Positions 3,893-64,000 are shown, counted from the first letter of the stretch. The stretch is DNA of 64,000 bases from an uncultured bacterium (GCA_938014335.1 CALLRP010000006.1:14226-78225); one strand, 5' to 3'. Numbers and translations are program-made. Notes: a model not told the origin generated them from the letters alone.

Positions 3893-3895
3893 AAA

Positions 3896-28119: not shown

Positions 28120-28138
28120 AACATCATTATATTAAATT

Positions 28139-43131: not shown

Positions 43132-43243
43132 AATCTTTTATAAACAATTTTTAATTTTTTTCGTTATATGATATAACGATTGTAAGATATTTAACCTTCA
43201 ATTACATAATTATAAACAATTGTTACTATTTTGGGGTGAATTT

Positions 43244-45254: not shown

Positions 45255-45274
45255 AGATAAAAGGAGTTTTTAAT

Positions 45275-45889
45275 ATGAACTGGATAAATATGCTTTATCA
45301 AGGGGGATGGGTTATGTTCCCTTTAGGTATATGTTCTGTGATTGCATTGGCAATTATATTAGAGCGTTTGTTTGCACTGAGGATAACGAGAAATGTTCCA
45401 GAAAATCTTGTTCAATTACTTTCTCATCCTAATATGTTAAAAGAACTGGAAACTATTCGTTCTATCGCACACCGTAATAATTCCCTCCTTGGGACACTTG
45501 TTCTTGAAATTATCAATCTTCGTAATGAACCCAAAGAGGTTTTAGTAGAACATATAAATACATTAGGGAGAACACAGTTATCTTATTTGGAACGAGGACT
45601 CACAGTATTGCAAATTATAGCAGTTATAAGTCCATTATTAGGGTTACTGGGAACTGTTTTAGGAATGGTAGATATATTTAATGTAATTACTATAGGAGGT
45701 ATAGGTAATGCGCAAATGCTGGCACAAGGTATTTCAAAAGCATTAATAACCACAGTAGTCGGCTTAATTGTTGCTATCCCTTCATTAGTCGCTTATCATT
45801 TATATTGGAGAAGAGTGGAAGAAATAGGAATAAAAATTCAAGAACTTATTATGCCCTTTTTAATGAAGGTTAAAAGTATCGAAAAATAA
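45275..45889 (+). CDS. exbB: MotA/TolQ/ExbB proton-channel protein (second copy).
   Basis: The sequence ...GLLGTVLGMVDIFNVI...ALITTVVGLIVAIPSLVAY is paralogous to the 9887 gene. An AAGGAG RBS is present. Confidence 0.85.
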   Translation: MNWINMLYQGGWVMFPLGICSVIALAIILERLFALRITRNVPENLVQLLSHPNMLKELETIRSIAHRNNSLLGTLVLEIINLRNEPKEVLVEHINTLGRTQLSYLERGLTVLQIIAVISPLLGLLGTVLGMVDIFNVITIGGIGNAQMLAQGISKALITTVVGLIVAIPSLVAYHLYWRRVEEIGIKIQELIMPFLMKVKSIEK

Positions 45890-46129: not shown

Positions 46130-46204
46130 GACAACCCTTATGTGGGTTGCGCACTCTTTTTAGATTATTCATCATTTCTCCATAAAATACATAAGGAAAA
46201 ATGT

Positions 46205-49200: not shown

Positions 49201-49975
49201 TATTCCGTATGATTTAGGTGTTTTATACGACCGTATGGGTAAAACACAAGAAGCAGAAGCAATGTATTACAAAGCACTAGAAGTAGATGATAAAAATCCA
49301 TTGGCATATAACAATTTAGGTTATCATGCCTTTCTATCAGGAGAAATAGATAAAGCGATAGAACTCTACCAAAAATCCTTATCTATCAAACCTGATTTAA
49401 TAAATGCTCTTTACAATCTTGCAGATGCATTTTTTTCAAAAGAGGAGTTAGAAAAAGTTATTCCTTATTTTGAGAAAGCATTAGAGATTCAACCTAAAGA
49501 CCATAATCTCCATAACGCCTTAGGTTTTTATGCCCTTCAAGTAGGCAAATTCGATTTAGCAGAGAAACACTTAAAGGAAGCAGTAAATTTACAACATGAA
49601 TTCCCACTTGCATGGAAAAATTTAGGGGATTTATATAAAGTTCAAAAAAGATATAGTGAAGCAGAACAAGCGTACAAAAAGGCAATAGAAATTTATCCCA
49701 GTGACGGAGAAGGTTGGGCAAGATATGCTATATTAAAGAAGGAAAAGGGTGATTATCAGGAATCTTTAGAATTATTTCAAGAAGCTTTAAAAAGATTGAA
49801 AGAAAGAGAAAGTCCACCAGAGCTAATTACAGAAGTTTTATTTGAAATAGGAGAAATATACCTTAAATGGGGTGATCAGGAAAATGTGAAGAAAATAATT
49901 ACAGAAATTACAAGATTGAACCCTGAAAATGATGAGATAAAACAAAGAATGAAACAAAAGGGATTCCCTGAATAA
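46205..49975 (+). CDS. Giant membrane protein: an N-terminal GT-C glycosyltransferase (PMT/ArnT/GT39-83-like, TMTC-like architecture) fused to about 25 TPR repeats. The start is reassigned to the GTG at 46205 (AAGGAA RBS).
   Basis: The first 480 residues are polytopic TM with an early extracytoplasmic acidic loop (...VPEGVTDPEMRTTPFFRPPGHGY...). The remaining ~790 residues are tandem 34-aa TPRs (e.g. AKEQFEKGIRLDPTYQDMFYYLGKTYLVMKDETKAEEYFRKALELNPNDARSH...). Confidence 0.8.
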   Translation: MKGRQVRCALFFILLIAIILRVWYLYEVYKYAPDYSALQQDPEVQDYFARAIVTGDWSVPEGVTDPEMRTTPFFRPPGHGYFLSFLYRFISDSYLTPRIVNSIAGILTVLLAFYLGRAIFNEYVGLIFSFLVATYSVFIYWEGEVNDPSLFVFFVVLMFYILYRWSIYKKWYECILLGLVIGAYATMRPNILSFGPFIALWMAWIVFKEKKYFAFIPSWIVLLVFTFVPIIPITVRNYIASGEWVFISTYFGENLFIGNNPEADGTTPWNQYLQKLEGTGNWTARDYVNVVKGLGKELGIKDLKHADASKIFAEKALEYIKTHPKETLIQVLKKAVLLWCPIEITCNKVVYYELKHYSPLKYLPTFPWAGGLFITGTILLVSNIKSIWKKKKIVPFLFSSNGTYSTELLLLIYLFIATYLGSFLIFFVNGRARVPVIPLFFLIGANFLYFLWLCIKNKNHVSLVNWLSVLFISFIVISVKWIPFEPDLARWHYQRADSYLRRGEIQKALEEAQTLVYMPQSLPYMHHRLGKDLFKAGYFVEAKEQFEKGIRLDPTYQDMFYYLGKTYLVMKDETKAEEYFRKALELNPNDARSHNEIGEILEHQGNWKEALTHYEKALQIVPDFTYVLDKYGRILSSQGRSEDALAFYRKALETDPSYQDVYYLIGRELRSLGRIEEAQDTLQKAVELNPKDARALCELGNICADEGDWDSAEAYYRKAVSAVPDFAYAYERLGRILFAKDNLKESEKNLKKAIELNPEYQDGIYLLGCVLKKEGRLEEAETYFRRALELNVRDARAWNELGEIMETKKDYEQALNCYEKALEAYPQFAYVIAKMGAIYANRGEYEKSLEKLKLALNIDPNFQNVCYMTGQVLSRMGQKEEAKVYFNKAIEMNPEDARAHRELALLIQEDNPEKAIEHFKKALEIVPDFTLILNNWGSLLVKQNRWDEAENKFYEALKIRPHDELAYYNLAQLAEKKGNTEQAIELYKKAMVNSPDNSYIPYDLGVLYDRMGKTQEAEAMYYKALEVDDKNPLAYNNLGYHAFLSGEIDKAIELYQKSLSIKPDLINALYNLADAFFSKEELEKVIPYFEKALEIQPKDHNLHNALGFYALQVGKFDLAEKHLKEAVNLQHEFPLAWKNLGDLYKVQKRYSEAEQAYKKAIEIYPSDGEGWARYAILKKEKGDYQESLELFQEALKRLKERESPPELITEVLFEIGEIYLKWGDQENVKKIITEITRLNPENDEIKQRMKQKGFPE

Positions 49976-49985
49976 CCTAAATTTA

Positions 49986-51182
49986 CTATTCAACGAGCTT
50001 ATTTAGATGATTACATACATATTTAACAGTATCTTCGGAAATTCCATCATAGAAAGGTAGGGCAAGCAATCGTGGATAAACATTATTTGCATTGGGACAG
50101 TTTGAATTTTCTATAAATACGGATACATTATCAATTACTTCTTCCCTCAATGCCGTATCAATTCCTCTAAAAAGAAGAGAACGACACATGTTTCGAGAAT
50201 CCATAGGGAGAATAACTACAAACATGTAATAAGATGGAGTACAATCGGGATGTACATAGGGAATATCAATTCTATCTGATAGAAATTTTCGATATAAACC
50301 GGCTATTTCATTCCGGTGCTCTACTCGTGAAGTAAGAAAGGGTAACTTTTCGATACCAATACTTGCTTGAAGAGGAGTAAACCGAATATTTTCAGGTGGA
50401 ACACTCTGAATCTTACGATATATAAACTCAAGTGATTTAAAAAAGAAAGGGAACAATCTAAAGAAAAGTATAGGATACATTAATCGTGAATTATAAAGAG
50501 TTTGTTCTAATTTTATCGATTTCGCTTTTTTAGTTATCTCCTTTGTGGTTAAAATTAATTTTTGGTTGTATTCCCCTACAAAATCAATAAGGGATGAATC
50601 CTTACTTACCAACATCCCCCCGCCATAAGTATTAATGGGTTTGGATATATCAAAACTAAAGAACCCCGCATATCCGAATGTCCCAGCATGCTGATTATTA
50701 ATTTTAGCCCCACATGCATGAGCGGTGTCTTCTATTACGGGAATATTATGTTCTTGTCCTATTTTACATAATTCTTCGATGTAGCAAGGATTTCCAAAAG
50801 TATGTAACGCGATAATGGCTTTGGTCTTTGAAGTTATAGAGTCTTGAACCAATTCAGGGTCAATATTTAATGTTTTGGGATTTATATCCACACAGATAGG
50901 TTTTAATCCCAATGACTGGATGATATTTACAAGTGCCTTTAATGTGAACGAAGGAATGATTACCTCATCATTCTTATGAAGCTTTAAATGTTGCAAAATG
51001 AGTTTGAGAGCCATCCGCCCCGATGGGAGAGCCACTGTGTATGGAGAGCCCAAAAAATCGCCAAACTCCCTTTCCCATCGAGAAACAATCCTATCATTGG
51101 ATAGTAAATCCAGAGAGGGATTTAGAACTTCTTTATATTCAGCAGGTAAAATATGTATCCATCTTCGTGGTATCATATACAC
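49986..51182 (-). CDS. DegT/DnrJ/EryC1/StrS-family PLP-dependent sugar aminotransferase.
   Basis: The conserved core is ...AIIALHTFGNPCYIEELCKIGQEHNIPVIEDTAHACGAKINNQHAGTFGYAGFFSFDISKPINTYGGGMLV (with the PLP-lysine region). It is 398 aa. Confidence 0.88.
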   Translation of the reverse strand: MYMIPRRWIHILPAEYKEVLNPSLDLLSNDRIVSRWEREFGDFLGSPYTVALPSGRMALKLILQHLKLHKNDEVIIPSFTLKALVNIIQSLGLKPICVDINPKTLNIDPELVQDSITSKTKAIIALHTFGNPCYIEELCKIGQEHNIPVIEDTAHACGAKINNQHAGTFGYAGFFSFDISKPINTYGGGMLVSKDSSLIDFVGEYNQKLILTTKEITKKAKSIKLEQTLYNSRLMYPILFFRLFPFFFKSLEFIYRKIQSVPPENIRFTPLQASIGIEKLPFLTSRVEHRNEIAGLYRKFLSDRIDIPYVHPDCTPSYYMFVVILPMDSRNMCRSLLFRGIDTALREEVIDNVSVFIENSNCPNANNVYPRLLALPFYDGISEDTVKYVCNHLNKLVE

Positions 51183-51205
51183 TCCAACTCTTAAAAGATA
51201 TAGTA

Positions 51206-52138
51206 ATGATTAATTTTATAAAAAGCAAAGACAAAATATTAAATGTTCTTCATATATCTGGTTTTGTCATTTTGATATTATTAACCTGTTTTGGAGTATA
51301 TCAGATACGAGAAGAAAATTTTGAAAATATAAAACATGTAATTGTAAATAGATGGGAACTATTCTTTTTAGCGTGTGTATTACGATTATTTGACTGGATT
51401 TTAGACTACTATTTGTGGCGATGTATGTTTAAAAATTTTTCTATCTCTTTCCCTTTTATAAAATCTATTTGGGTCTATCTCACTCAGGGTGCTGGAATTG
51501 TATTGCCGGCACAATTAGGCAGAGCATTAAGAGGATATATAATCACAAAAACAGTGAGCACACCCATCTCAAAAGCCATGACTGCGGAATTTTTGTTTTT
51601 ATTATGTGTTTTGGAAGGAGCATTTTTAGTTTTAATACTCTCATTAGCTATTTATACCAACACATTTGTATTGCCAATAATCCTTTCATTACTTTCATTA
51701 TTACTCTTCCCCTTTTTATTAAAATTCTTTAAACCTTTTCTGGCAAAGTTAAAAATAGGATTAACGGACAATGTAATTCGTCCTCCTTTTTTGATTTTAT
51801 TCTGCATAGGCTGTTCTATTGGGTGGGCAGTTAATGGCTTAATATTTTATCTTTTATTGGGAGGGAAAGAATCGGGACTATATTTAAGTCAAGTTGAAAT
51901 GATTGTTTTAGGAAACTTATTTTTAGCAATATGTAGTGGGATTCCTGGCGGAGTGGGAATTGTAGAAGCAACTATGAGTGTTTCATTACATTGGCTTCAG
52001 GTTCAATTACCCGAAATAATCCTTGTTATAGGGTTGTTCCGTATAATAACATTCTGGATTTGGATACCTTTAGGTTGGCTGGGTTTATTCCGTTTAAAAT
52101 TATATAAAAGTGTGGATTTAAAAGTAGATGTAGAATGA
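51206..52138 (+). CDS. Polytopic membrane protein of the flippase-like / lysylphosphatidylglycerol-synthase-TM (UPF0104-like) type. The start is reassigned to the ATG at 51206.
   Basis: It has about 8 TM helices and no soluble domain. It is first in the operon and is coupled to the next gene by an ATGA overlap. Confidence 0.55.
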   Translation: MINFIKSKDKILNVLHISGFVILILLTCFGVYQIREENFENIKHVIVNRWELFFLACVLRLFDWILDYYLWRCMFKNFSISFPFIKSIWVYLTQGAGIVLPAQLGRALRGYIITKTVSTPISKAMTAEFLFLLCVLEGAFLVLILSLAIYTNTFVLPIILSLLSLLLFPFLLKFFKPFLAKLKIGLTDNVIRPPFLILFCIGCSIGWAVNGLIFYLLLGGKESGLYLSQVEMIVLGNLFLAICSGIPGGVGIVEATMSVSLHWLQVQLPEIILVIGLFRIITFWIWIPLGWLGLFRLKLYKSVDLKVDVE

Positions 52139-53130
52139 AACAGAAAATAAAAAGTATTCCAATACTGTTGAAATCATGGGTAAAAACAAAAATTTTAGGA
52201 ATAAATGCGCCTTTATTTGTTGAGTGGAACCTAACTTTCCGATGCCCATATCAGTGCCTTTATTGTGGCTCTCGGGAAGTGACTGTTAATGAGTTAGATA
52301 CAAATGAAATATTGGAGCGGTTGAATATTTTACAAAAAATAGGTGTTAGATGGATTACCTTTGGTGGGGGAGAACCTTTAATTAAAAAAGACATAATAAA
52401 AATTCTTGAACATGCGAAATCGTTAGGGCTGAATGTTTTTTTAAGTTCCACAGGTGTCAATATAGAAAAGTACAATGGAATTGAAAAGTATGTTGACCAT
52501 ATAAATCTGAGTTTTGATGGGCCACAAGAAATACATGATAAAATTAGGGGTGAGAGGACTTATAATCGGTTATTTCAAGTAGTTGATTTTTGCAAGTCGA
52601 AGAATATTTCGGTGTCCTTTTTATGTGTTATATCCAAGTTAAATATTAATAAATTAGACTATGTTTTAGATAAGGCTAAAGAAGAAAATATAAAGGTAAT
52701 GTTTCAGCCAGCAACTTTACATTTAGATTCCTCTTTAACTCCAAATCCAATTGCTCCTGATAAAGACACATATGATAATGCGCTACAATATATTATGAAC
52801 AAGAAAAAACAAGGCTACCCTGTTCGTAATTCATTTGCAGGGTTAGAATATCTTAGGAACTGGCCGAACCCGTCAAGAATATGGTGTTCTGCTGGAAGAT
52901 TAACATGTACTATTGAACCGGATGGTACAATACTTTCCTGTCATTTATTTGAAACTCGTGAACTATATAAAAAGAAAGAAAACAAAGGAGATAATGAAGA
53001 ATTTGAAAAGATAATAAATCAGTTAAAAGTACCAAAAGGTTGCTCTACTTGCTGGTGTGCCCCTGTTGTTGAACTTGCTTTAATATGGAATTTAAATCCT
53101 TCTGCTATATGGAATGCACTCGGGATATAA
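52135..53130 (+). CDS. Radical SAM / SPASM-domain protein.
   Basis: The cluster motif is CPYQCLYC, with GGGEPLI after it. C-terminal auxiliary-cluster cysteines are present: CSAGRLTCTIEPDGTILSCH...GCSTCWCAP. Confidence 0.8.
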   Translation: MKQKIKSIPILLKSWVKTKILGINAPLFVEWNLTFRCPYQCLYCGSREVTVNELDTNEILERLNILQKIGVRWITFGGGEPLIKKDIIKILEHAKSLGLNVFLSSTGVNIEKYNGIEKYVDHINLSFDGPQEIHDKIRGERTYNRLFQVVDFCKSKNISVSFLCVISKLNINKLDYVLDKAKEENIKVMFQPATLHLDSSLTPNPIAPDKDTYDNALQYIMNKKKQGYPVRNSFAGLEYLRNWPNPSRIWCSAGRLTCTIEPDGTILSCHLFETRELYKKKENKGDNEEFEKIINQLKVPKGCSTCWCAPVVELALIWNLNPSAIWNALGI

Positions 53131-53158
53131 AATGGTTTCTTTTTAGGATTAATTATTA

Positions 53159-54910
53159 ATGATAATATTAGGAATTAGTGAAGACTTTTTTGATGCAGGG
53201 GTTACCCTTTGTGATGATGAGTGGATATTATTCATGTCGAACGAGGAGCGATATACCCGCCAAAAAAATGAAGGTGGATTTCCACATTTATCATTAGAAA
53301 ATGCATTAAAACAAACAGGAATAACATGGAAAGATATACAGGCAGTATGTGTTTCTGGTTTTGTAACACCCTTCCCTTTTTTCCGATTATTTCCTAATTT
53401 ACAGAAAAAAGCATTTTGTTCAAAGAGAAAGAAAAATCAGAGTGACAAAAAATCGAACTACTGGGATAACATTACAGAATGGGCAGTCTCATATAATCCC
53501 ATAAGTTATATGAATCCTTCAGAGACGATGAAAAAAAGTTTATCTGTTATTTTAAGAAAAATAATACGAAAAAGATTACCCTTTCTTAATTCTGATGTTC
53601 CTATTCATTTCATCGAACACCATGAAGCCCATGCATGGGGAAGTTATTTCTGTTCTGGTTTTGATGAGGCACTTATTGTTACTGCAGATGGAATGGGGGA
53701 TGGCTTATCGTTGACTATTTCGAAAGGAGAAGGGAACTCGATAACCCGATTATGGAAATCCTCTGCTAAGAGTTCTTTTGGATTATTTTTTGAGAATCTG
53801 GCGGAAGTGTTAGGATTTGTCCCTTGTAGAGATGAAGGGAAACTTACAGGTTTATCAGCTCATGGAGATGCAAATAGAATTCAGTATGAAAATCCATTTT
53901 CATGGAATAATGATGTCCTCTTATACAAAGGACCCTACGGCAAAAAATTAAGAGAATGGCTTCTACAGTTATTACATGAATATTCGCGAGAAGACCTTTG
54001 TGCCTGGTCACAAAATATTTTAGAACAAATGCTATGTTCTTTAATTGAATATTGGTTAGATAGAACAGGGCTTAAAAAAATTGCTGTGGCTGGGGGAGTT
54101 TTTGCGAATGTGCTGTTAAACCAGAAAATACACGAATTGGAAAAGGTCGAAGAACTCTTTGTGTATCCGAATATGGGTGATGGAGGGTTGAGTTTAGGGG
54201 CTATCAGTGCACAACTCCGTTTTTATCCAAAACCTCTTCCGCATGCTTTCTGGGGGGATGGTTTTAGTAAAAAAGAAATAACGGGTGCAATTTCTAAATA
54301 TAAACTTCCATTTAAAGAATTCGATGAACAGGAAATACCCCAACTTGTTGCAAAGTGTTTGTATAACAAGAGAATTATTGCAAGATTTCATGGTAAAATG
54401 GAATGGGGACCTCGTGCTTTGGGAAATCGTTCTATTTTGTGTGATTCTACCATGAAAGATGTAACAGAAAAATTGAATAATATGTTAAAACGAAGTGATT
54501 TCATGCCGTTTGCACCTGCTTTATTAGATGAGGATGCAGGGCAATTTTTGATAGGATATGAAAAGGCAAGGCATGCAGGTGAATTTATGACATGCTGTTT
54601 TCAGAGTACTCCTAAAATGAAAGACCAACACGGTGCAGTTGTTCATATTGATGGAACAACACGAGCCCAACTTGTAAAAAAAGAGAATAACCCAACCTTT
54701 TATGAAATTTTAAAGGAATATAAAAAACTTTCAGGAACAAGTGTGGTTTTAAATACAAGTTTTAATATGCATGAATCGCCAATAATACGAACTCCTGAAG
54801 AAGCCTTACAAACATTTAAAGAGACTGATGTAGATTTTCTATTTTTAGAAAACTTTGTTATAGCAAAAACTCCGGATTTATGGAATGACTTTAGACAAAA
54901 TAGCAAATAA
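53159..54910 (+). CDS. NodU/CmcH-family carbamoyltransferase.
   Basis: The N-terminus, MIILGISEDFFDAGVTLCDD, is a Kae1/HypF-like ASKHA fold. A middle ...HHEAHAWGSYF... His motif and a C-terminal carbamoyl-phosphate-binding domain are present. It is 583 aa. Confidence 0.88.
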   Translation: MIILGISEDFFDAGVTLCDDEWILFMSNEERYTRQKNEGGFPHLSLENALKQTGITWKDIQAVCVSGFVTPFPFFRLFPNLQKKAFCSKRKKNQSDKKSNYWDNITEWAVSYNPISYMNPSETMKKSLSVILRKIIRKRLPFLNSDVPIHFIEHHEAHAWGSYFCSGFDEALIVTADGMGDGLSLTISKGEGNSITRLWKSSAKSSFGLFFENLAEVLGFVPCRDEGKLTGLSAHGDANRIQYENPFSWNNDVLLYKGPYGKKLREWLLQLLHEYSREDLCAWSQNILEQMLCSLIEYWLDRTGLKKIAVAGGVFANVLLNQKIHELEKVEELFVYPNMGDGGLSLGAISAQLRFYPKPLPHAFWGDGFSKKEITGAISKYKLPFKEFDEQEIPQLVAKCLYNKRIIARFHGKMEWGPRALGNRSILCDSTMKDVTEKLNNMLKRSDFMPFAPALLDEDAGQFLIGYEKARHAGEFMTCCFQSTPKMKDQHGAVVHIDGTTRAQLVKKENNPTFYEILKEYKKLSGTSVVLNTSFNMHESPIIRTPEEALQTFKETDVDFLFLENFVIAKTPDLWNDFRQNSK

Positions 54911-55559
54911 TAAAAATGAAAGATTAAAAATTGCCATTATTGATTATTCCGCAGGGAATATCCATTCTGTATATCGTGCTTTTTCGAAGACAGGTGTCAT
55001 GATTGAGGTTATAAATAAGGAAACGGAGTTAGACCTATTTGATGCGGTTGTTTTGCCAGGGGTAGGTGCCTGTGCCAGTGCTATGGACTTTTTATCAAAG
55101 GTAGGACTTATAAAGAGATTAAACCACTATGTTTTAGAATTGAAAAAGCCTATTTTAGGGATTTGTTTAGGTTTTCAAATAATGGCAGAATTTAGTGAGG
55201 AAGGCGAAGCAAAAGGATTAGGTTGGATACCGGGACATGTCCGTTATATACGGAATGTTGTTCAAAATTTCATTCGCGTTCCACATATTGGCTGGAATGA
55301 TGTGAAAACTTACAAAGGAAGTTTATCTCTTCTGTCAGGGATGATAGATAATCCTAATTTTTATTTTGCTCATTCATACTTTATCCCAGCCAATAAAATC
55401 GAAGGAAACATTGGAATAACCGAATATGGAACGCCCTTTATTTCTTTATATCAAAATAAAAATATTTACGGCACTCAATTTCATCCCGAAAAAAGTTATA
55501 TTGGTGGTGCTATCTTAATCCAAAATTTTTTAAATGAGGTATGTAATGCTAAAAGTTAG
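54885..55559 (+). CDS. HisH-like glutamine amidotransferase subunit. In this context it is a WbuY-type partner of the sugar amidotransferase, not a histidine-biosynthesis gene.
   Basis: The triad signature is GICLGFQIM...HSYF..FHPEKS. It lies between the carbamoyltransferase and the HisF-like/WbuX genes. No other his genes are present in the window. Confidence 0.8.
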   Translation: MTLDKIANNKNERLKIAIIDYSAGNIHSVYRAFSKTGVMIEVINKETELDLFDAVVLPGVGACASAMDFLSKVGLIKRLNHYVLELKKPILGICLGFQIMAEFSEEGEAKGLGWIPGHVRYIRNVVQNFIRVPHIGWNDVKTYKGSLSLLSGMIDNPNFYFAHSYFIPANKIEGNIGITEYGTPFISLYQNKNIYGTQFHPEKSYIGGAILIQNFLNEVCNAKS

Positions 55560-56364
55560 AGTAATACCGGTATTATTACTAAGACATTGGGGTCTGGAGA
55601 AGACCATCCAATTTACAAATCCTAAATATGTGGGGTGTCCAATTAATGCGGCTCGAGTTTTTAACCAGCATAATGTGGATGAACTTATATTGCTTGACAT
55701 AGTCGCGACACTTGAAAATCGTCCTCCGGAAATTGATGTTGTGAGGCAAATATCCGCAGAGACTTCAATGCCCTTCACAGTAGGAGGAGGAATTCGGGAT
55801 GTAGGCATTATACGAGAGTTATTAAAAGCGGGGGCAGATAAAGTAGTTTTAAATACCTCCGTTGTTGAAGTCCCCGGTTTGTTGGAAAAATCCGCAGAAC
55901 AATTTGGGCGACAATGTATTGTAGTATCCATAGATGTGAAAAAAGTTAATGGGACTTATGAGGTATTTACGCATGGAGGGAGGAAACCCGCAGGATTAAA
56001 CCCTGTAGAGTTGGCAATGAAGGCAGAGAAAGAAGGAGCCGGGGAAATATTAATTACAAGTATAGATAGAGATGGAACGCTCGAAGGTTATGACTTAGAT
56101 TTAATAAAAATGATTACAGAATCAGTTCAGATTCCTGTTATTGCTTGTGGTGGGGCTGGTTCTGTAAAAAATTTAGCAGATGCATACTATAAATCAGGGG
56201 CTTCTGCTGTAGCGTGTGGTGCATTTTTTCTCTTTTATGGTACTCGAAGGACAGTACTAATAACTTACCCATCCGAAGAACAATTGTTAGAGTATTTTGA
56301 GCCTCAACATGTTCGAAAAAGAGATCCCAAGAAACCTATTGATTTAGAATTAGCACGGTTATAA
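55546..56364 (+). CDS. HisF-like cyclase/ammonia-channel subunit (WbuZ-type). The start is moved to the ATG at 55546 (GAGG RBS).
   Basis: TIM-barrel HisF motifs are present: ...RVIPVLLL..., DELILLDI, GGGIRD and ITSIDRDGTLEGYDL. Confidence 0.8.
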   Translation: MLKVRVIPVLLLRHWGLEKTIQFTNPKYVGCPINAARVFNQHNVDELILLDIVATLENRPPEIDVVRQISAETSMPFTVGGGIRDVGIIRELLKAGADKVVLNTSVVEVPGLLEKSAEQFGRQCIVVSIDVKKVNGTYEVFTHGGRKPAGLNPVELAMKAEKEGAGEILITSIDRDGTLEGYDLDLIKMITESVQIPVIACGGAGSVKNLADAYYKSGASAVACGAFFLFYGTRRTVLITYPSEEQLLEYFEPQHVRKRDPKKPIDLELARL

Positions 56365-56381
56365 CGGATATAGGTGGTGTT

Positions 56382-57533
56382 ATGATTCAGCAAAATGAAG
56401 AAAAAGTTTTATGTAAACGGTGTGTGATGGATACTTCTATTCCAGGCGTTCGTTTAGACAAACAGGGAATATGTAACTTTTGCCACATGCATAATAATTT
56501 AGATAAACGATTCCCTGTGGGAGAAGAAGGAGCAAAAATATTACAAAAGATTGCTAATAAAATAAGAAAAGATGGCAAAGGGAAAAGATACGATTGTGTC
56601 GTTGGAGTAAGTGGGGGAAGAGATACATCTTATTGTTTATATTATGTGAAAGAAGTTATGAATCTACGTCCTCTGGCTGTTCATTTTGACAACGGTTGGG
56701 ATTCCGAAATTGCAAAGAGTAATCTTGCTAAATTATGTGATAAATTAGATGTAGAATTGCACACGATAATTATGGACTGGCCTGAATCCCGCGAACTAAC
56801 AAATGCAACTATTAGAGCATGTGTACCTTATATAGACTTAACGGACGATATCGGAATTGCGAGTAGTTTATACCGAACCGCTGTCGAAGAAAATGTCCGC
56901 TATATCATTCTAAGTCATTCTTTTCGTGAAGAAGGGATAACCCCACTGAAATGGAATTACATAGATGGAAAATATACCCGTGCTATTGTAGACCAGTTTT
57001 GTACAATTCCATTAATACATTTTGAGAATGTAGAACTCTGGGATATGATTTACTGGATATTGTGGAGGGGAATTCGTGTAATTAATATAACAAATTATTA
57101 TGACGATACAGGGGAAAAAATAGAGACATTTCTTAAAGAAAAGTTTGATTGGCAGGATACAGGACAACACCATTTGGATAATGAATTATTTACATTAGTT
57201 TATTATTATGCAAGAAGAAAATTTGGTTTCGATTGGCGCGTAGTTGAATTATCCGCAAAAGTTAGAACCGGTGTAATTTCTCGAGAGTCTGCTTTGAAAG
57301 CGTTACAAGAAATTCCTTTTTTTGAGGATGAAGAAAGGATAGAACATTGTTTAAGAAAACAAGGTATAAGTCGAGAAGAATTTGAGATGATAGTTAAATC
57401 ACCCAATAAATATTTTACAGATTATCCGTCTTACTATCCCTTGCTACGAAAGTTTAAATGGTTTATATGGATTTTATGTAAACTTCATGCTATACCAGCA
57501 CATACTTATGAAAAATATTTTCATGCTATCTGA
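56382..57533 (+). CDS. PP-loop N-acetyl-sugar amidotransferase (WbuX/WbpG/PseA-like) that forms an acetamidino group.
   Basis: N-terminal Cys pairs form a zinc ribbon (CKRCVMD...CNFCHMH). The PP-loop is VVGVSGGRDTSY. It is 383 aa. Confidence 0.82.
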   Translation: MIQQNEEKVLCKRCVMDTSIPGVRLDKQGICNFCHMHNNLDKRFPVGEEGAKILQKIANKIRKDGKGKRYDCVVGVSGGRDTSYCLYYVKEVMNLRPLAVHFDNGWDSEIAKSNLAKLCDKLDVELHTIIMDWPESRELTNATIRACVPYIDLTDDIGIASSLYRTAVEENVRYIILSHSFREEGITPLKWNYIDGKYTRAIVDQFCTIPLIHFENVELWDMIYWILWRGIRVINITNYYDDTGEKIETFLKEKFDWQDTGQHHLDNELFTLVYYYARRKFGFDWRVVELSAKVRTGVISRESALKALQEIPFFEDEERIEHCLRKQGISREEFEMIVKSPNKYFTDYPSYYPLLRKFKWFIWILCKLHAIPAHTYEKYFHAI

Positions 57534-57583
57534 AATTAAACTTAAATCGGTATATAATTTTATTTTAATTAGGTATACGGTAA

Positions 57584-59023
57584 ATGAAGAAAAAAAGATT
57601 ATTTTTAGTTAATCTGGGTTTGAGAAGACCACTATATCCATTAGCCACTCCTCCGATGGGGCTTTTGTATCTTTCGGCGTATCTACGCCGTGAATTGAAA
57701 GACATTGAAATAGGTATAATAAACCAGAGGTTGGAAAATTGTAATATTGAAGAATTATGTGAAAGAATCAAGACTTTTGAACCCGACATTATTGGTATAT
57801 CTACTTTTACCACTTTTGCTTATTTACTTCCTTTGTTAGTCCCAATGCTTCGAAGTGCTTGTCCCAAAGCATGGATTATTGTTGGAGGACCCCATGCTTC
57901 AGCTGTGCGTAAAGGTGTATTTGATGATGTAGATATAGATATTTTAGTGCCAGGTGAGGGCGAAATTGCTTTAAAACAAATAATAGAAAGTTTTCCAGAA
58001 AGGGAATCGTTACAAAATATAAACGGGATTTACTGGAAAGATAAATCAGGAGAGGTAATTCAGAACCCAGGATTATTGCCTATGATTGAGAATTTAGATG
58101 AATTGCCTTTTCCCGCTTATGATTTAATTGATTTGCCCCGTTATTGGAAACATCAGTCTATTGCCCCTATAGTAAGAAGGAAATATGCCTCACTTGTAAG
58201 TAGTCGGGGGTGTCCTTATCAATGTATGTGGTGTCATTCTATTTTTGGAAGACGAATCCGAATGCATTCTGCTGAACGAGTTGTAGATGAAATCGAATAT
58301 TTGGGAAAAGAATACAATATCACCGATTTTGAGTTTTTAGATGATAACTTTAATTTTAACTCGAAGCGAGTAATAGAGATTGCAGAACTTATTCATAAAC
58401 GAGGCTTAAAAACAGAAATTGCTTTTCCCACCGCAATTCGAGGAGATTTAGCAACTCAGGAAGTTATAGATGCGATGCATTCTATAGGTACATATCTTTG
58501 TGGCTACTCATTAGAGACAGGGTCTCCTCGGCTACAAAAATTTACCTGTAAAAGACTGGATATTCCCAAATTTTTAAATGCGGTAGAAATGACAGCCAAA
58601 AAGAACATCTACATTACAGGTTTCTGTATGATGGGATTTCCTACTGAGACCGAAGAAGAACTACAACAAACTATAGATGTAGCATGTAAATCTCGTTTTC
58701 ATACCGCTAGTTTCTTTACAGTAACCCCATTCCCCGGAACCCCTCTCTTTGAATGGGTAAAAGAAAATCGTCCTGAAAAATTATCACAATTGAATTATAA
58801 CAACATGGATTTCTCAGCAATGAATGTAAATTTAACAGACTTGCCTGACGAAGTCCTTTTTGCCTATCAGCGTAAAGCTATGAAAAAGTTTTATACCGAC
58901 CCCATTCGTATTTATCGACTATTGAGAAGTTATCCCAAACCCCTGCTATTGCCCTATTATCTCCCCATCTTTATCCATCGAGCCACCAAAGGACTATGGA
59001 AATCTCAAACAATTAATTGTTAA
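57584..59023 (+). CDS. B12-binding-domain radical SAM protein (class-B-like).
   Basis: The N-terminal B12-binding fold is ...DIIGISTF...AWIIVGGPHAS. The radical-SAM motif is SSRGCPYQCMWC. It is 479 aa, and its stop overlaps the start of the downstream GT-C gene. Confidence 0.85.
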   Translation: MKKKRLFLVNLGLRRPLYPLATPPMGLLYLSAYLRRELKDIEIGIINQRLENCNIEELCERIKTFEPDIIGISTFTTFAYLLPLLVPMLRSACPKAWIIVGGPHASAVRKGVFDDVDIDILVPGEGEIALKQIIESFPERESLQNINGIYWKDKSGEVIQNPGLLPMIENLDELPFPAYDLIDLPRYWKHQSIAPIVRRKYASLVSSRGCPYQCMWCHSIFGRRIRMHSAERVVDEIEYLGKEYNITDFEFLDDNFNFNSKRVIEIAELIHKRGLKTEIAFPTAIRGDLATQEVIDAMHSIGTYLCGYSLETGSPRLQKFTCKRLDIPKFLNAVEMTAKKNIYITGFCMMGFPTETEEELQQTIDVACKSRFHTASFFTVTPFPGTPLFEWVKENRPEKLSQLNYNNMDFSAMNVNLTDLPDEVLFAYQRKAMKKFYTDPIRIYRLLRSYPKPLLLPYYLPIFIHRATKGLWKSQTINC

Positions 59024-61272
59024 ACTGTGAATGGTATCCTTATAAGATTATAATTCTTAAACAGGGCTTTTTGGTGGGAAACAATAAAGAAAAAAAATAT
59101 AATATTCAAGTCTTATTGAGTTGTTTCCTTATCATTTTATTAGCTTTCATCATCCGAATTTACAAAATTTCCGATGAATCGATATGGTGGGATGAGTATT
59201 CCAGTCTGGCTCACATAAATGCAGACTCTTTATCAGAGTTCCTTTTTTTAAATCCTCTTTATGACCCCGCCACCATGCCAGCCTATTATATTATAGAATA
59301 CCTTTTCTGGCACTATATATCTCCTTCTGTTTTAGGTTTGCGGTTCTTTTCTGTCTTATTGAGTATAATGACCATCCCTATTTTATTTCTCATCGGTAGA
59401 AAATTAGGTTCCTATAAAATAGGATTAATAGCGGGTCTATTTTTCGCTCTCTCACCGATACATCGTTTTTTTGGACAGGGGATACGAATGTATGTTTTAT
59501 TAACTTTACTTTTTACTTTGTCAGTATATTATTTACTTTCATATCTCGAAGAGAACAAAAAGAAAAACGGGATTATTCTGACTATAGTAAACTTTATCCT
59601 TTTGTGGACTCATCCCTTTGCAATTCTGATTATTGGTATAGAAATGTTTTGTTTTCTCATTGCTCATAAAGTAAGAGGATATAAAAAATATATCTTGTTT
59701 TTTTCTCAAACAATTATAAGTATCCCTCCTTTATTTTATATGTTGAATATAAAATATTATTCAACAGAGAAATCTTTCTGGTTCAAAATACCAAGTCTAT
59801 ATGAGTTTATTGGGGATTTATTTGCTGATGATGCGGTAGGTTTGACATATCAGGTACGAATTATTAATGAAATTATCCCTGATTATTTGAGAACAATACA
59901 TCCTTTTATGGACTTATCTTTATTAGTCATAAATGTTGGAATAATTCTATTTAGTTTAGGGTATGTTTTGAAAAACCTAAAAGATGAAAACGAATTAAAG
60001 GGCAAAATCACTTTTCTTATTTTGATGTTTTTAATCCCACCTATGTTTTTATATGTCATTTCAATTCTATGGAGGCCTTGTATATTCCCAAGATACACAC
60101 TTTATAGTAGTCTCGCTATATATTTGCTTTATGGATGTTTTATACATATAATAAATAATAAATATCTAAAAAAATCAATATTATTTTTGTTAATAGCTAT
60201 TTTTGGTTATCAGTTATTTATTACAATTCCGTTACCTCAACGTACAAATTGGCAAGAAACTTCTCGTTTTATTGAACAATCCTTTCCACCAGAGGGAGAG
60301 AAATCCCCCGTGTTTGTATATCAAGCCATTAATAAAGATGTTTTTTCTTTTAATTTAAAAGATAAAACAATCCCTGTTTCCTTTGTAGAAAAAGTTGATA
60401 CTCTTATCCCTATTTTTCAAGAACTGTTTCAAAAGGATACCAATTGTTTTTGTTCTGAAGTATGGTTTGTGCATGTTTCTTTCTATTTTGCTGAATACGG
60501 CTCTCCGGAGTTAGAACGATTGTTGGACGAGAATAAAATGGCTTATAAATATTACGACTTCTACGGAATAGAACCTATTCGATTATACAGAATTACACCT
60601 ATGGAAGGTGTTGCATATCCTAATTTGAATCTGAAAGCCTTATCTGATGAGATGTTGAAATTTACAATTTCGGATTTAGCCCTTTCTTATGTTGAGACTG
60701 GGTATAAAGAATGTGCGATATATTTACTTGAAAAATTAATGAATGACCCTCTCCAAAGATTACAGTATAAAAATTTATATAATGCACAAAAAAATGATAA
60801 GAATGTCTACAATCTTGCAAATGCCTTACGGTATTACCAGATAAGCCAGAGAAGTATAGACCCAAAGTATAAGGAATACTTCTTAAATAAGGCTATTGAA
60901 CGGGATGCAGATTTGAAACTGGCTTATTTATGTTTTGACGCGATTATGACTTCAATAGAAGGAGATATCAATACCACTCATGAAAAACTTTACCGTATTA
61001 TTGACATGGCTCCTGACCTTGCTCTTCCAAGAATTGCTCTGGGAGTGATTGCCTTATCGCAGAACAGGGAAGAAGATGCCAAAAAATGGCTTTATTCCGC
61101 TATAGAGTGTGAAAAGGGACATTACAAAAGTTGGGAAAATCTATTAAATTTCATTTTTATAGAGAAAAATTACTCCAAGGCATTGGAAGAATATCATGCC
61201 CTTCAAGATAAAGGTATATTTGTAGAAACTTATTTTGAAGAATACTTAACCGAAAAGATACAAAATAAATAA
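59017..61272 (+). CDS. GT-C glycosyltransferase (PMT/ArnT, GT39/83-like) with a C-terminal TPR-like helical domain (751 aa).
   Basis: TM1 is followed by the ...ISDESIWWDEYSS acidic DE motif typical of ArnT/PMT first-loop catalytic residues. It has about 11 TM helices and then helical-repeat sequence. Confidence 0.8.
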   Translation: MLNCEWYPYKIIILKQGFLVGNNKEKKYNIQVLLSCFLIILLAFIIRIYKISDESIWWDEYSSLAHINADSLSEFLFLNPLYDPATMPAYYIIEYLFWHYISPSVLGLRFFSVLLSIMTIPILFLIGRKLGSYKIGLIAGLFFALSPIHRFFGQGIRMYVLLTLLFTLSVYYLLSYLEENKKKNGIILTIVNFILLWTHPFAILIIGIEMFCFLIAHKVRGYKKYILFFSQTIISIPPLFYMLNIKYYSTEKSFWFKIPSLYEFIGDLFADDAVGLTYQVRIINEIIPDYLRTIHPFMDLSLLVINVGIILFSLGYVLKNLKDENELKGKITFLILMFLIPPMFLYVISILWRPCIFPRYTLYSSLAIYLLYGCFIHIINNKYLKKSILFLLIAIFGYQLFITIPLPQRTNWQETSRFIEQSFPPEGEKSPVFVYQAINKDVFSFNLKDKTIPVSFVEKVDTLIPIFQELFQKDTNCFCSEVWFVHVSFYFAEYGSPELERLLDENKMAYKYYDFYGIEPIRLYRITPMEGVAYPNLNLKALSDEMLKFTISDLALSYVETGYKECAIYLLEKLMNDPLQRLQYKNLYNAQKNDKNVYNLANALRYYQISQRSIDPKYKEYFLNKAIERDADLKLAYLCFDAIMTSIEGDINTTHEKLYRIIDMAPDLALPRIALGVIALSQNREEDAKKWLYSAIECEKGHYKSWENLLNFIFIEKNYSKALEEYHALQDKGIFVETYFEEYLTEKIQNK

Positions 61273-61277
61273 TTCAA

Positions 61278-62384
61278 TCATTTAGTTTGCCAACCTAAAT
61301 ATTTATCCAAAAAACGATAGGCTTCTTCTCGTATTTCAGGAGGGAAATCGTGCCCGCAGTCAGGATGGACTACTTTTAAATTTTCTTCAGTTTTATAAAG
61401 TGCATAGACCTTCTTTGCGGATTGCACACAATCATCCACACCTGTTACCTCAAAATTATCATCATGTAGGGGAGCATTAATAAAAACCGGACGAGGTGCG
61501 AGAGTTCCCAGAATTTCAGTAAAATCAAAAGGGAGTAAATCGGGATTGCATTTATATATTTCTTTTATCCTCGGCATGTATCCCTTATGAGACCAGCCGT
61601 TTAGGTCACCGTTATAGTACTTTTTCATACTCGTGAATCCACAACTGGTTACCATAACTTTAATTCGTTCATCGAAAGCCCCTAAAAAGAGTGCGTTATG
61701 TCCCCCCAAGGAATGACCAATTGCTCCAATTTTTGTTGAGTCGACTTCATCCAGGGTTTCAAGGAGGTCAATACAACGTCGGTGATTTCCAATACCCTTG
61801 GCTGTGGCACTTGCATATCCCATAGCATAAACATCAATTTTATAATCACCAAACCCTGGGTAATCCGGAACAATAACAATATATCCCCTTTCCGCCAGTT
61901 CCTTAGCAATATGTCGGTTTTTTGCATCGCCGATGCCCACAGGGCTGGCTTTGCCTATGTCGATAGTTTGGTGTAAGCAAACAATTGCAGGCCTTTTCTC
62001 TTTAATATCTTTGGGTATCAAAAGGTAGGCAGGTAATCGGTCGTTTTGCTCTGCAACAAACGATAATTTTTTCCGCCAGTAGGTGCCCATATCTTCTATG
62101 GATTCCACTTTTGTGTCCAGTGCAGGTAATTGAGAGCGGTTAGGTAAAGGTCCCATAACGAGAAGCATGTTTTGCAATATGTGATTTTTTCGAATACTCC
62201 ATTCGCTTATATTTGTTATTTCACGAATCTCCTCATTGCTACCCAGATAGTAGAGTAAATTAAATTTATCCTTATAAAAAGGTGGTTCCCCTGATACAAC
62301 TATCGGACATAAACCCCAGAAAAGCGTTAGTACAGAAAGCATTCGCAACATACAATTACCCTTTTTAGTTAAACTGTATTGCAT
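61278..62384 (-). CDS. Secreted alpha/beta-hydrolase (esterase/dienelactone-hydrolase-like).
   Basis: It has a signal peptide. The nucleophile elbow is GAIGHSLGGHNA, and a downstream ...HPDCGHDFP His motif is present. Confidence 0.75.
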   Translation of the reverse strand: MQYSLTKKGNCMLRMLSVLTLFWGLCPIVVSGEPPFYKDKFNLLYYLGSNEEIREITNISEWSIRKNHILQNMLLVMGPLPNRSQLPALDTKVESIEDMGTYWRKKLSFVAEQNDRLPAYLLIPKDIKEKRPAIVCLHQTIDIGKASPVGIGDAKNRHIAKELAERGYIVIVPDYPGFGDYKIDVYAMGYASATAKGIGNHRRCIDLLETLDEVDSTKIGAIGHSLGGHNALFLGAFDERIKVMVTSCGFTSMKKYYNGDLNGWSHKGYMPRIKEIYKCNPDLLPFDFTEILGTLAPRPVFINAPLHDDNFEVTGVDDCVQSAKKVYALYKTEENLKVVHPDCGHDFPPEIREEAYRFLDKYLGWQTK

Positions 62385-63840: not shown

Positions 63841-64000
63841 ATCTCCTTAATTTGTAGCATTTAGATTTTTATAATTTGTCCATTTTCTTAAGCTTAGTTT
63901 AAACCAATAATTAAATGCCCTTATTTGATTTTTCAAATGATGAGGACGGCGTATCGTTCTCACGATCGTTCTTGCAAAATAACGAGGTCTAAGATAATAT

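Follow-up and report, generated by a model that had tools for sequence, protein, structure and literature searches.

Among the described systems closest to the locus reported here is the Arn pathway, together with the Flm system of Francisella and the Lgm system of Bordetella, in which a DegT aminotransferase acting on a keto sugar, a polyprenyl-phosphate glycosyltransferase of family GT2, a translocase and a periplasmic PMT_2/ArnT-type glycosyltransferase of the GT-C class place a positive charge on the product. A second group is formed by the three-component systems GtrABC (Shigella and Salmonella phages), CsbB-GtcA-YfhO (Bacillus and Listeria) and PpgS-Rv3779 (mycobacteria), which combine a GT2 for a polyprenyl-phosphate-linked monosaccharide with a small flippase and a GT-C. 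Here we describe a chromosomal locus of Candidatus Hydrogenedens (phylum Hydrogenedentota) on a 64,000-nucleotide stretch of DNA from an uncultured bacterium (GCA_938014335.1, CALLRP010000006.1:14226-78225), hereafter called the window, with positions counted from its first nucleotide. The locus most likely builds a carbamoylated, amidine-bearing amino sugar on a lipid carrier for envelope targets, which are reached via GT-Cs carrying tetratricopeptide repeats (TPRs). All the enzymes belong to superfamilies already known, and the overall logic is that of described three-component periplasmic glycosylation; among characterised equivalogs, only the generic WbuX, HisF2 and HisH models were matched.

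When compared to the Arn pathway, the locus shows an ArnC family match (its GT2) and an ArnT fold match (its GT-C), and its product is likewise predicted to be positively charged. However, the locus lacks the ArnA dehydrogenase/formyltransferase, the ArnD deformylase and the ArnE/F flippase; in their place we found a twitch-type radical S-adenosylmethionine (SAM) enzyme, a carbamoyltransferase (CarbT), a WbuX/HisH/HisF amidotransferase, one or two cobalamin (B12)-binding radical SAM enzymes and an LPG_synthase_TM protein. There are four GT-Cs with TPR arrays, and scores stayed below the ArnB and ArnC equivalog cut-offs. With regard to the three-component systems, the PpgS and PgfS/ArnC-type models match GT2s here and a YfhO-like protein takes the GT-C slot in planctomycete versions of the locus. 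Those systems transfer unmodified Glc, GlcNAc or GalNAc, whereas six or seven tailoring enzymes are encoded in the same operons here, and the candidate flippase comes from another family than GtrA/GtcA.

The combination of an ArnT-like polytopic GT-C with luminal or periplasmic TPRs and an acidic first-loop motif is shared with TfpW of Pseudomonas aeruginosa, which glycosylates pilin, and with animal TMTC1-4, which act on cadherins; the likeness is one of architecture. TfpW uses decaprenyl-phosphate-linked D-Araf and is encoded beside pilA, and the TMTCs use dolichyl-phosphate-linked mannose, whereas a heavily modified amino sugar is predicted as donor here. Near the locus we found no pilin or cadherin-like gene. 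Prokaryotic full-length TMTC-like proteins are uncharacterised (PMC7801869). A PP-loop/tetracysteine amidotransferase with HisH/HisF paralogues is shared with the acetamidino modules WbpG/WbpB/E/D/I (P. aeruginosa O5), LfnA/WbuX-WbuY-WbuZ (FucNAm) and AglX/Y/Z (archaellin glycan of Methanococcus maripaludis) and with LpNASAT (PDB 8WEX), and the planctomycete versions of the locus even keep the pair of a WbpB-like GFO_IDH_MocA protein and a WbpE-like DegT protein. The locus differs from these modules in having no WbpD-type N-acetyltransferase, no Wzx/Wzy or AglB-type context and a tightly linked CarbT. The latter shares the two-domain architecture and the metal-site and carbamoyl-AMP motifs of TobZ, NovN, GdmN and NodU, which sit in antibiotic or Nod-factor clusters, whereas CarbT is encoded in envelope-glycosylation loci. 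The first-pass annotation of the window had suggested that the combination was new to characterised loci, and we found no description of it: the searchable literature showed no CarbT combined, within a polyprenyl-phosphate/GT-C pathway, with an N-acetyl-sugar amidotransferase (NASAT) trio and as many as three radical SAM enzymes, no locus with four TPR-bearing GT-Cs, and no operon of flippase-like LPG_synthase_TM protein, radical SAM enzyme and CarbT (hereafter Flip-rSAM-CarbT).

A tailoring operon within a larger chromosomal locus

Open reading frame (ORF) calling recovered the nine genes at 49986-61272 that had been annotated before, one divergent aminotransferase gene and eight plus-strand genes, and Pfam and NCBIfam searches of each protein upheld all enzyme families assigned to them. 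The genes of the locus between 46142 and 61272 are (aa, amino acids; PLP, pyridoxal phosphate):

46142-49975, plus strand: GT-C with a PMT_2-type polytopic N-terminal domain of ~500 aa and a periplasmic TPR array of ~750 aa, 1277 aa (TPR families; PMT_2 in the orthologue)
49986-51176, minus strand: DegT/DnrJ/EryC1 PLP-dependent sugar aminotransferase, 396 aa (PF01041, 230 bits)
51206-52138, plus strand: LPG_synthase_TM/flippase-like polytopic membrane protein, 310 aa (PF03706, 63.8 bits)
52135-53130, plus strand: radical SAM enzyme with one auxiliary-cluster (twitch-like) C-terminal domain, 331 aa (PF04055, 78.7 bits)
53159-54910, plus strand: TobZ/NovN/NodU-type carbamoyltransferase (CarbT) with Kae1-like and YrdC-like domains, 583 aa (Carbam_trans_N/C)
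54885-55559, plus strand: HisH-type class-I glutaminase subunit, 224 aa (TIGR01855, 197.6 bits against 105; PF00117)
55546-56364, plus strand: HisF2/AglZ/WbuZ-type cyclase-like subunit, acetamidino modification-associated, 272 aa (NF038364, 322.4 against 310)
56382-57533, plus strand: WbuX/NASAT PP-loop N-acetyl-sugar amidotransferase, 383 aa (TIGR03573, 224.6 against 203.2)
57584-59023, plus strand: class-B (cobalamin-binding) radical SAM enzyme, B12a, 479 aa (PF02310, 51.4 bits; PF04055, 63.7 bits)
59074-61272, plus strand: GT-C glycosyltransferase, 732 aa from a GTG start, also referred to below as the 751-aa protein (PMT_2-like; fold search)

The earlier picture of a self-contained nine-gene "island" was not borne out. 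The nine genes make up the central operon of a larger chromosomal locus, which comprises at least 16 genes (~27 kb in relatives). The GC content of 49986-61272 does not differ from that of the remaining window, and a check for features of a mobile island found no tRNA genes in the 64-kb window. Rfam families, including riboswitches, were likewise not detected there. Within the window the locus starts at 46142 with the second GT-C+TPR gene, and its far end lies past the window end, where the orthologous loci of three relatives (L004, L005 and L006; related loci are referred to by L numbers) encode a second B12-binding radical SAM enzyme, a GT2 with a C-terminal transmembrane (TM) domain and two further PMT_2+TPR proteins. 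In L006 a sigma-54 response regulator comes next after the locus genes. The window continues as its relatives do, since the 45-aa fragment at its end matches the second B12-binding enzyme (B12b) of L004. Directly upstream of the 1277-aa GT-C+TPR gene, the region 43220-45889 (plus strand) holds two ~345-aa ORFs without family match, which overlap as listed from TTG starts, and an orphan MotA/ExbB-like gene without ExbD.

Gaps among the plus-strand genes range from -26 to +50 nucleotides (nt). Terminator-like hairpins were not enriched inside the operon (7 found versus 10.3 expected from shuffled sequence), which speaks against a split of the operon by terminators. Of the two 4-nt ATGA overlaps noted before, the one at 52135 is real; at 59017 the sequence is TTG..TAA, and both the gene caller and all orthologues place the GT-C start at GTG 59074, ~50 nt downstream. 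The GT-C gene is the final gene of the tailoring operon, preceded by a 50-nt gap and no terminator. The DegT gene diverges from the operon, with 29 bp between the two start codons, and lies tail-to-tail with the 1277-aa GT-C+TPR gene.

The PLP-binding Lys179 of the aminotransferase lies in an SFDISK motif, and the closest solved structures are scyllo-inosose/2-deoxy-scyllo-inosose aminotransferases, QdtB and WbpE (1e-36 to 1e-33). No NCBIfam equivalog cut-off was reached, and orthology to PseC, LegC, ArnB, WecE or DesI was rejected (best scores 162 against 420 for the LegC family, 159 against 423 for PseC and 137 against 631 for ArnB). The gene is co-directional with the module in L035 and L089. 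The LPG_synthase_TM protein, which has several hydrophobic segments and a weak TIGR00374 match, is by its family a candidate translocase of the lipid-linked sugar. Its gene heads the operon and is kept in L088, L023, L028 and a minimal operon in L092. No GtrA, ArnEF, GtcA or EamA-type flippase gene was found in the locus; instead, Hydrogenedentota and L089 offer the LPG_synthase_TM protein as a candidate, and planctomycete loci a DedA/VTT protein.

The third gene of this group had been called a radical SAM/SPASM enzyme. Its radical SAM nature holds (core motif C37xxxC41xxC44), but the SPASM domain, which has 7-8 cysteines and two auxiliary clusters, does not: there was no PF13186 match, and among 57 homologues four C-terminal cysteines (C251, C269, C303 and C306) are invariant and C308 is nearly so. 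These suffice for one auxiliary cluster, and the domain is therefore twitch-like. An AlphaFold2 model (predicted local distance difference test score, pLDDT, 92.5) matched PqqE (4e-13), BlsE (6e-13), SuiB, SkfB, MoaA, anSME, viperin, DesII and SpeY in Foldseek searches, and several of these fold relatives act on sugars or nucleotides. BtrN was absent from both sequence and fold matches, and a BtrN-like identity was rejected in favour of the general twitch class. The family comprises ~90 clusters at 33% identity or more, followed by a gap to 26%; all named members are Hydrogenedentes, and the family is apparently confined to Hydrogenedentota-like genomes.

CarbT exceeded the gathering thresholds of Carbam_trans_N (102.1 bits versus 24) and Carbam_trans_C (192 versus 27) by far and is related to NovN (8e-62), TobZ (1e-56) and GdmN (3e-54). 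Alignment with TobZ and NovN showed that the metal site and the carbamoyl-adenylate motifs are kept (HHEAH154, DGMGD, GDGGLSLGA, GPRALGNRS and LNTSFN). It is a member of the family and not a NodU orthologue (NF041651, 92.1 bits against a cut-off of 1000). The amidotransferase trio follows directly. HisF2 scored below the cut-off of the related model TIGR03572 (285 versus 299.7). WbuX is only distantly related to the sole solved relative, the Legionella NASAT 8WEX (E=3.7e-8), and carries the PP-loop S77GGRDT82, with Ser replaced by Thr at the last position, and a tetracysteine set C11/C14/C31/C34 with G29, all invariant in four orthologues. The NASAT family is defined by a PP-loop SGGxDS and a tetracysteine CxxC...[GN]xCxxC zinc motif, and little is known of its structural and functional properties (PMC10607449). 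In L089:11950-13911 (minus strand) a HisF-like and a WbuX-like protein are fused into one of 653 aa (53% and 60% identical to the respective window proteins), and this Rosetta-stone fusion confirms that HisF and WbuX work as one enzyme. Given that no N-acetyltransferase is encoded in the locus, the amide on which WbuX is predicted to act could be a pre-existing 2-N-acetyl group or an N-carbamoyl group.

The closest solved relatives of four of the genes belong to antibiotic pathways, including those of aminoglycosides: BtrR and the scyllo-inosose aminotransferases for DegT, NovN and TobZ for CarbT, AprD4 for B12a, and BlsE, SpeY and DesII for the twitch enzyme. This might indicate a secondary-metabolite cluster of the aminoglycoside or aminocyclitol kind, an idea that we consider barely tenable: the likeness probably reflects which sugar-modifying enzymes have been crystallised, no cyclitol synthase, GT-B glycosyltransferase, resistance or export gene was found, and a polyprenyl-phosphate GT2, a flippase-like protein and four GT-Cs are envelope machinery. 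Phylum-wide conservation at normal GC content also argues against such a cluster.

The radical SAM motif of B12a reads C210PYQCMWC. Its nearest relatives are ApyD, BchE and HpnJ, all far under cut-off (best 162 bits versus 750, for ApyD), followed by AprD4 (8e-18) and TokK (5e-14). B12a is an accessory component: L008 (Ca. H. terephthalaticus) and L010 lack it between WbuX and the GT-C, and L009 carries B12a and the GT-C in fragmented form, with ~7.5 kb of inserted DNA and another, complete GT-C copy behind them. Downstream of the operon we identified three further genes:

61278-62384, minus strand: alpha/beta-hydrolase, CE15/dienelactone-hydrolase-like, ~355-368 aa, with an N-terminal signal-like segment (GCE_fung 8e-12; Peptidase_S9; DLH)
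62365-63840, minus strand: 491-aa protein without assigned family, with an N-terminal signal-like segment (weak GH130-like signal)
63865-64000, minus strand: 3' end of the second class-B radical SAM enzyme, B12b (tblastn, 45 aa, 87% to the C-terminus of L004 B12b)

The alpha/beta-hydrolase gene, whose signal-like segment was judged by inspection, is the last of a convergent minus-strand operon, and its position is kept in L004-L006, L008 and L010-L012. The 491-aa protein had neither a Pfam match nor a PDB sequence match; one orthologue gave a weak match to beta-1,2-mannobiose phosphorylase (3.9e-6), and the protein is 59-77% identical and syntenic in relatives. That the hydrolase and the GH130-like protein might edit the product in the periplasm is pure conjecture. 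B12b, judged by its L004 orthologue, has HpnJ as best family (199 bits versus a cut-off of 578). HpnJ-, BchE-, ApyD-, AprD4-, PhpK- or GenK-like equivalog status was accordingly rejected for B12a as well as for B12b.

Past the window end, every orthologous locus examined (L004-L006) encodes a GT2 (L004:16270-17454). The best NCBIfam matches of the L004 protein are AglJ (130 bits), dolichyl-phosphate hexose transferase, PpgS and ArnC, which makes it a GT2 of the polyprenyl-phosphate type and the likely maker of the GT-C donors; Pfam lists GT2_TM_C for it. The lipid-linked donor that the earlier GT-C assignment calls for thus has a probable source in these loci. A second full-length polyprenyl-phosphate GT2 gene is found in the window itself at 13318-14307 (minus strand), 32 kb from the locus (194 bits with the PgfS model, 127 with ArnC), and some of the four GT-Cs might receive a different lipid-linked donor from its product.

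The HpnJ matches raise the question of a membrane-lipid head-group pathway resembling hopanoid HpnI/J/K/L, in which a GT2 would add an amino sugar, an HpnJ-like enzyme would rearrange it and an HpnL-like protein is encoded alongside. HpnJ is matched by both B12b and B12a, PF03706 is the HpnL family, and the minimal Flip-rSAM-CarbT operon suggests a membrane-bound substrate. A guanidine-substituted bacteriohopanetetrol cyclitol ether does exist in Methylobacterium (PMC5358736). We nevertheless regard this explanation as very unlikely. The HpnJ scores are far under cut-off, the GT2 matches polyprenyl- and dolichyl-phosphate transferases rather than HpnI, four GT-Cs would have no role, and neither squalene-hopene cyclase nor hpn genes were found in the window or the fetched flanks.

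GT-C glycosyltransferases with TPR arrays

The GT-C encoded at 59074-61272 was modelled with AlphaFold2 from 33 homologues (pLDDT 90.7, predicted TM-score 0.88). The model consists of a TM domain (~1-400), a periplasmic alpha/beta domain (~405-510) and TPR-like helical repeats (520-730), the latter with 12 helices arranged in hairpins. All of the top 31 Foldseek PDB matches were GT-C enzymes (E=1.6e-6 to 1.7e-2, target-normalised TM-score 0.24-0.54), among them STT3, PglB, AglB, ArnT, Pmt4, ALG9/12/3, DPY19 and AftB, and the repeat part matched OGT-TPR and consensus TPR. By its model the protein thus has a GT-C fold. Precomputed PF13231 PMT_2 matches exist for the orthologues P0002 and P0006 and for most homologues, and NCBI names an orthologue 'glycosyltransferase family 39 protein'. 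Residues W38 W39 D40 E41, which lie in the first extracytoplasmic loop just behind TM helix 1, are nearly invariant in the 33 homologues. This position is the site of the catalytic acidic residues in the GT-C class. The TPRs assigned to this protein before are supported by the model and by the family profile (1e-70 to 1e-11 against TPR proteins), but the window sequence itself gave no significant Pfam TPR match. When the family profile was compared to PDB sequences, TPR proteins swamped the list; information on the catalytic domain came from the fold search instead.

Counting the downstream part seen in orthologous loci, four GT-C+TPR paralogues belong to one locus. The 1277-aa protein has canonical TPRs (TPR families at 1e-127) and ~9 hydrophobic segments, and its orthologues carry precomputed PF13231 PMT_2 matches; its gene position is kept in L004-L006, L009, L010 and L012. 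Two further paralogues of 870 and 735 aa are encoded at the far end of the locus. Catalytic domains of the 1277-, 870- and 735-aa proteins share 32-46% identity with each other, and the 751-aa one forms a separate subfamily. The N-terminal domain of the 1277-aa protein is 46% identical to GTC870_N and 32% to GTC732_N. Between the extra paralogues and the matches of the first protein search, similarity was found at the TPR level only. The group is very large: a threshold of E<=1e-3 gave 16,054 representative clusters for the GT-C catalytic region, and one of E<=1e-30 gave 266. In L007:10001-13781 a GT-C+TPR protein (37% to the 751-aa one) adjoins a B12-binding radical SAM enzyme 56% identical to B12b, with no other locus genes, and such a pair may be a unit by itself.

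Conservation and modularity of the locus

A WbuX-profile scan with one genome per species yielded 80 loci, which were tabulated by tblastn with all locus proteins. The full arrangement was found in Hydrogenedens-like genomes (L004-L006, L008-L013), where WbuX is 78-91% identical while the GT-C falls to ~40%. In the independently assembled relatives L004, L005 and L006, GT-C identity to the window is 73, 59 and 40%, respectively. The arrangement is not due to chance, since the same order is kept where the GT-C is only 40% identical; WbuX identity among the Hydrogenedens loci aligned for this comparison is 80-91%. Near-identical Hydrogenedens-type loci (L010, L013, L014, L015 and L020) occur in metagenome-assembled genomes (MAGs) labelled uncultured Nitrospirales or Nitrospiraceae; judging from gene content and from identity to Hydrogenedens loci, the labels seem to be taxonomic mis-assignments.

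Beyond these genomes the modules recur in other surroundings. More distant Hydrogenedentota (L023 and L028) encode Flip-rSAM-CarbT-HisH-HisF-WbuX together with a B12-binding radical SAM enzyme, a GT2 or a GT-C, and in L035 the order is DegT-rSAM-CarbT-HisH-HisF-WbuX, after which come genes for a DedA protein and a protein with 10 TM segments. The version in Planctomycetaceae comprises a YfhO-like protein with 13 TM segments, GDSL hydrolases, CarbT, HisF, WbuX, GFO_IDH_MocA, DegT, a small GT2, DedA and a B12-binding radical SAM enzyme. In L052, labelled a Fuerstiella sp. MAG, WbuX and a weak GT2 match were all that was detected. An Elusimicrobia MAG encodes CarbT-HisH-HisF-WbuX adjoined by two PMT_2 genes, and L089 holds LPG_synthase_TM, DegT, a small GT2, CarbT, the HisF-WbuX fusion, HisH and PMT_2. 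When the count was restricted to loci flanked by 5 kb or more on each side, CarbT lay within 10 kb of WbuX in 13 of the 22 with a close WbuX (54% identity or more) and in none of the 15 with a distant WbuX, a difference that is indicative only, since the loci are phylogenetically related. The view that the genes form one functionally linked unit gains support from the synteny in Hydrogenedentota and from the recurrence of the modules in Planctomycetota and the Elusimicrobia MAG.

As a single set, however, the tailoring genes are linked in synteny but separable into the modules Flip-rSAM-CarbT, HisH-HisF-WbuX and an accessory B12-binding radical SAM enzyme. A minimal LPG_synthase_TM-twitch radical SAM-CarbT operon with overlapping or abutting genes and no amidotransferase trio nearby is present in L092:9084-12723 (plus strand, GCA_016278185.1), which suggests that these three genes are a functional unit of their own acting on a membrane-bound substrate. 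L088 combines the same three genes with HisH-HisF, without WbuX, beside an insertion sequence element, and many Hydrogenedentota loci hold WbuX-HisH-HisF without CarbT. We also observed homologous CarbT modules beside lipopolysaccharide (LPS) genes in L088:6762-13170 and L090:5875-13050 (GT9 heptosyltransferase-family; Lip_A_acyltrans, LpxL-like), which hints that some versions decorate the LPS core or lipid A.

Could the locus consist of two or more unrelated systems that happen to be co-located? The tailoring genes would then feed a conventional O-antigen or capsule made elsewhere, and the GT-Cs would use an ordinary donor, e.g. from the GT2 at 13318-14307. The separable modules fit this explanation, as do GT-C+TPR homologues that occur without tailoring genes and the presence of a second ArnC/PgfS-like GT2 in the window; moreover, WbuX trios classically occur in Wzx/Wzy O-antigen loci. 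We consider it rather improbable, however, since Pfam scans and the L004-L006 gene maps revealed no Wzx, Wzy, Wzz or GT-A/B assembly genes in the locus, and the GT-C gene ends the tailoring operon itself. Moreover, GT-C-like proteins of at least three families (PMT_2+TPR, plain PMT_2 and YfhO-like or other polytopic proteins) recur beside CarbT/WbuX in three phyla, each time accompanied by a small GT2 and by either DedA or an LPG_synthase_TM protein.

Proposed pathway and further features of the window

The recurring set of an oxidation/transamination pair, CarbT, an amidotransferase, a polyprenyl-phosphate GT2, a flippase-like or DedA protein and a GT-C-type protein leads us to propose, with moderate confidence, a pathway that follows the logic of Arn, GtrABC, CsbB-YfhO and PpgS-Rv3779. 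A hexosamine-type sugar would be tailored in the cytoplasm, either as nucleotide sugar or already lipid-linked. The keto group would be generated by a WbpB-like dehydrogenase in Planctomycetes and, with low confidence, by the twitch radical SAM enzyme in Hydrogenedens. The gene for the latter takes the place that GFO_IDH_MocA has next to DegT in planctomycete loci; BlsE-like decarboxylation or epimerisation would be other options for this enzyme. DegT would then transaminate the keto group, CarbT would carbamoylate the sugar via carbamoyl-AMP, and WbuX, with ATP and ammonia from HisH/HisF2, would turn an N-acyl amide into an amidine, which is positively charged. An optional decoration, most simply C-methylation, might be added by one or two cobalamin radical SAM enzymes. 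The GT2 past the window end is predicted to load the sugar onto polyprenyl phosphate, the LPG_synthase_TM-like protein to flip it, and the four GT-C paralogues with their periplasmic TPR arrays to transfer it to envelope acceptors. Tailoring may take place on the lipid-linked rather than the nucleotide sugar, as hinted by the conserved coupling of CarbT and the radical SAM enzyme to a membrane protein.

Several observations weigh against this pathway. Pfam scans and the L004-L006 gene maps showed no nucleotide-sugar dehydratase, nucleotidyltransferase or N-acetyltransferase in the locus, and the organism itself is known from metagenomes alone. The flippase assignment is based on the family name only, and PMT_2 on the window GT-C is marginally under the Pfam gathering cut-off (25.0 bits versus 26.1, E=2.5e-5). 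GT-C+TPR homologues at ~30% identity lie in unrelated contexts without tailoring genes, so that the GT-C alone is not a marker of the system. Finally, since the modules also occur alone, the tailoring genes need not act on one sugar.

A variant of the chemistry concerns the product of the nitrogen-modifying steps. WbpB/E/D/G have an N-acetyltransferase in the position where a carbamoyltransferase is present here, and no recognisable N-acetyltransferase that would cap the amine installed by DegT was found in the Hydrogenedens locus or in the planctomycete locus L086. The tight linkage of CarbT to WbuX/HisH/HisF and DegT in such loci raises the tentative and rather doubtful idea that the pathway makes a guanidino sugar, with a keto group turned into an amine (DegT), an N-carbamoyl or ureido group (CarbT acting on nitrogen) and then a guanidino group (WbuX). 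For the last step one may envisage adenylation of the ureido oxygen by WbuX and addition of ammonia from glutamine. Argininosuccinate synthetase offers a parallel for this PP-loop chemistry, and the Kae1/TsaD relatives of CarbT act on nitrogen. On the other hand, CarbT and WbuX each occur alone, and the 2-N-acetyl group of a HexNAc would suffice as WbuX substrate. To our knowledge this would be the first biosynthesis of a guanidino sugar for a bacterial surface, and TMTC-like GT-C+TPR enzymes would deliver the sugar. It might also give a hint at the origin of guanidines in natural products, e.g. that of the guanidine-substituted bacteriohopanetetrol cyclitol ether.

As acceptor of the amidine-bearing sugar we favour a protein, by analogy, because of the TPR arrays and because the characterised GT-C+TPR enzymes TfpW and TMTC act on proteins. 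The same pathway might instead modify the lipid A phosphates or inner core of LPS, an Arn/Lgm/Flm-like change of surface charge with a cationic amidine sugar. This alternative is unlikely overall but kept in play by the GT9 and LpxL-type genes neighbouring related CarbT modules: in L088 a GT9 gene lies directly upstream of LPG_synthase_TM-rSAM-CarbT, and in L090 GT9 and Lip_A_acyltrans genes are near CarbT and DegT. In its favour, the GT-C has ArnT as one of its closest structural matches, genes for diderm machinery (OEP/TolC, AcrB and ExbBD) are present in the window, and an amidine is cationic, as are Ara4N, GalN and GlcN. However, we know of no TPR array in the characterised lipid A GT-Cs ArnT, LgmB and FlmK, and the widely differing lengths of the TPR arrays in the four paralogues point to several macromolecular acceptors.

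GT-C+TPR proteins are a very large bacterial group that shares the architecture of the TMTC O-mannosyltransferases, and beyond TfpW we found no functional characterisation of them. The Hydrogenedens locus ties four such enzymes genetically to a donor-synthesis set and thereby provides a testable hypothesis on what they transfer. It also draws attention to two unstudied groupings, the Flip-rSAM-CarbT operon and the CarbT-HisF-WbuX module that occurs in Planctomycetota as well. Planctomycetes have cultured members, and genetics would be possible if those carry the latter module. Should the locus yield a permanently cationic amidine or guanidine sugar on the envelope, the pathway would represent a new route of surface-charge remodelling in two poorly understood phyla.

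Elsewhere in the window, 34586-35185 (plus strand) encodes a hexapeptide-repeat acetyltransferase (WcaF/NeuD-like, weak) in an unusual placement between an AcrB-type pump (31345-34557) and an outer-membrane factor (35160-36707). The region 26554-29292 (minus strand) encodes a 521-aa fusion of AmmeMemoRadiSam proteins B (MEMO1-like, TIGR04336, 229 bits) and A (AMMECR1, TIGR04335, 166) and, adjacent to it, the radical SAM partner of this system (TIGR04337, 378 versus 220). A 1187-aa FMN_bind/Fer4_5 NosR-like membrane protein (22994-26557) overlaps these genes by 4 nt and apparently belongs to the same operon. At 1760-4684 (plus strand) a 710-aa class-B-like and a 262-aa radical SAM enzyme form a tight pair beside a DUF6786 gene. 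Altogether the window encodes seven radical SAM enzymes, including the fragment at its end, and this richness is consistent with an anaerobe.

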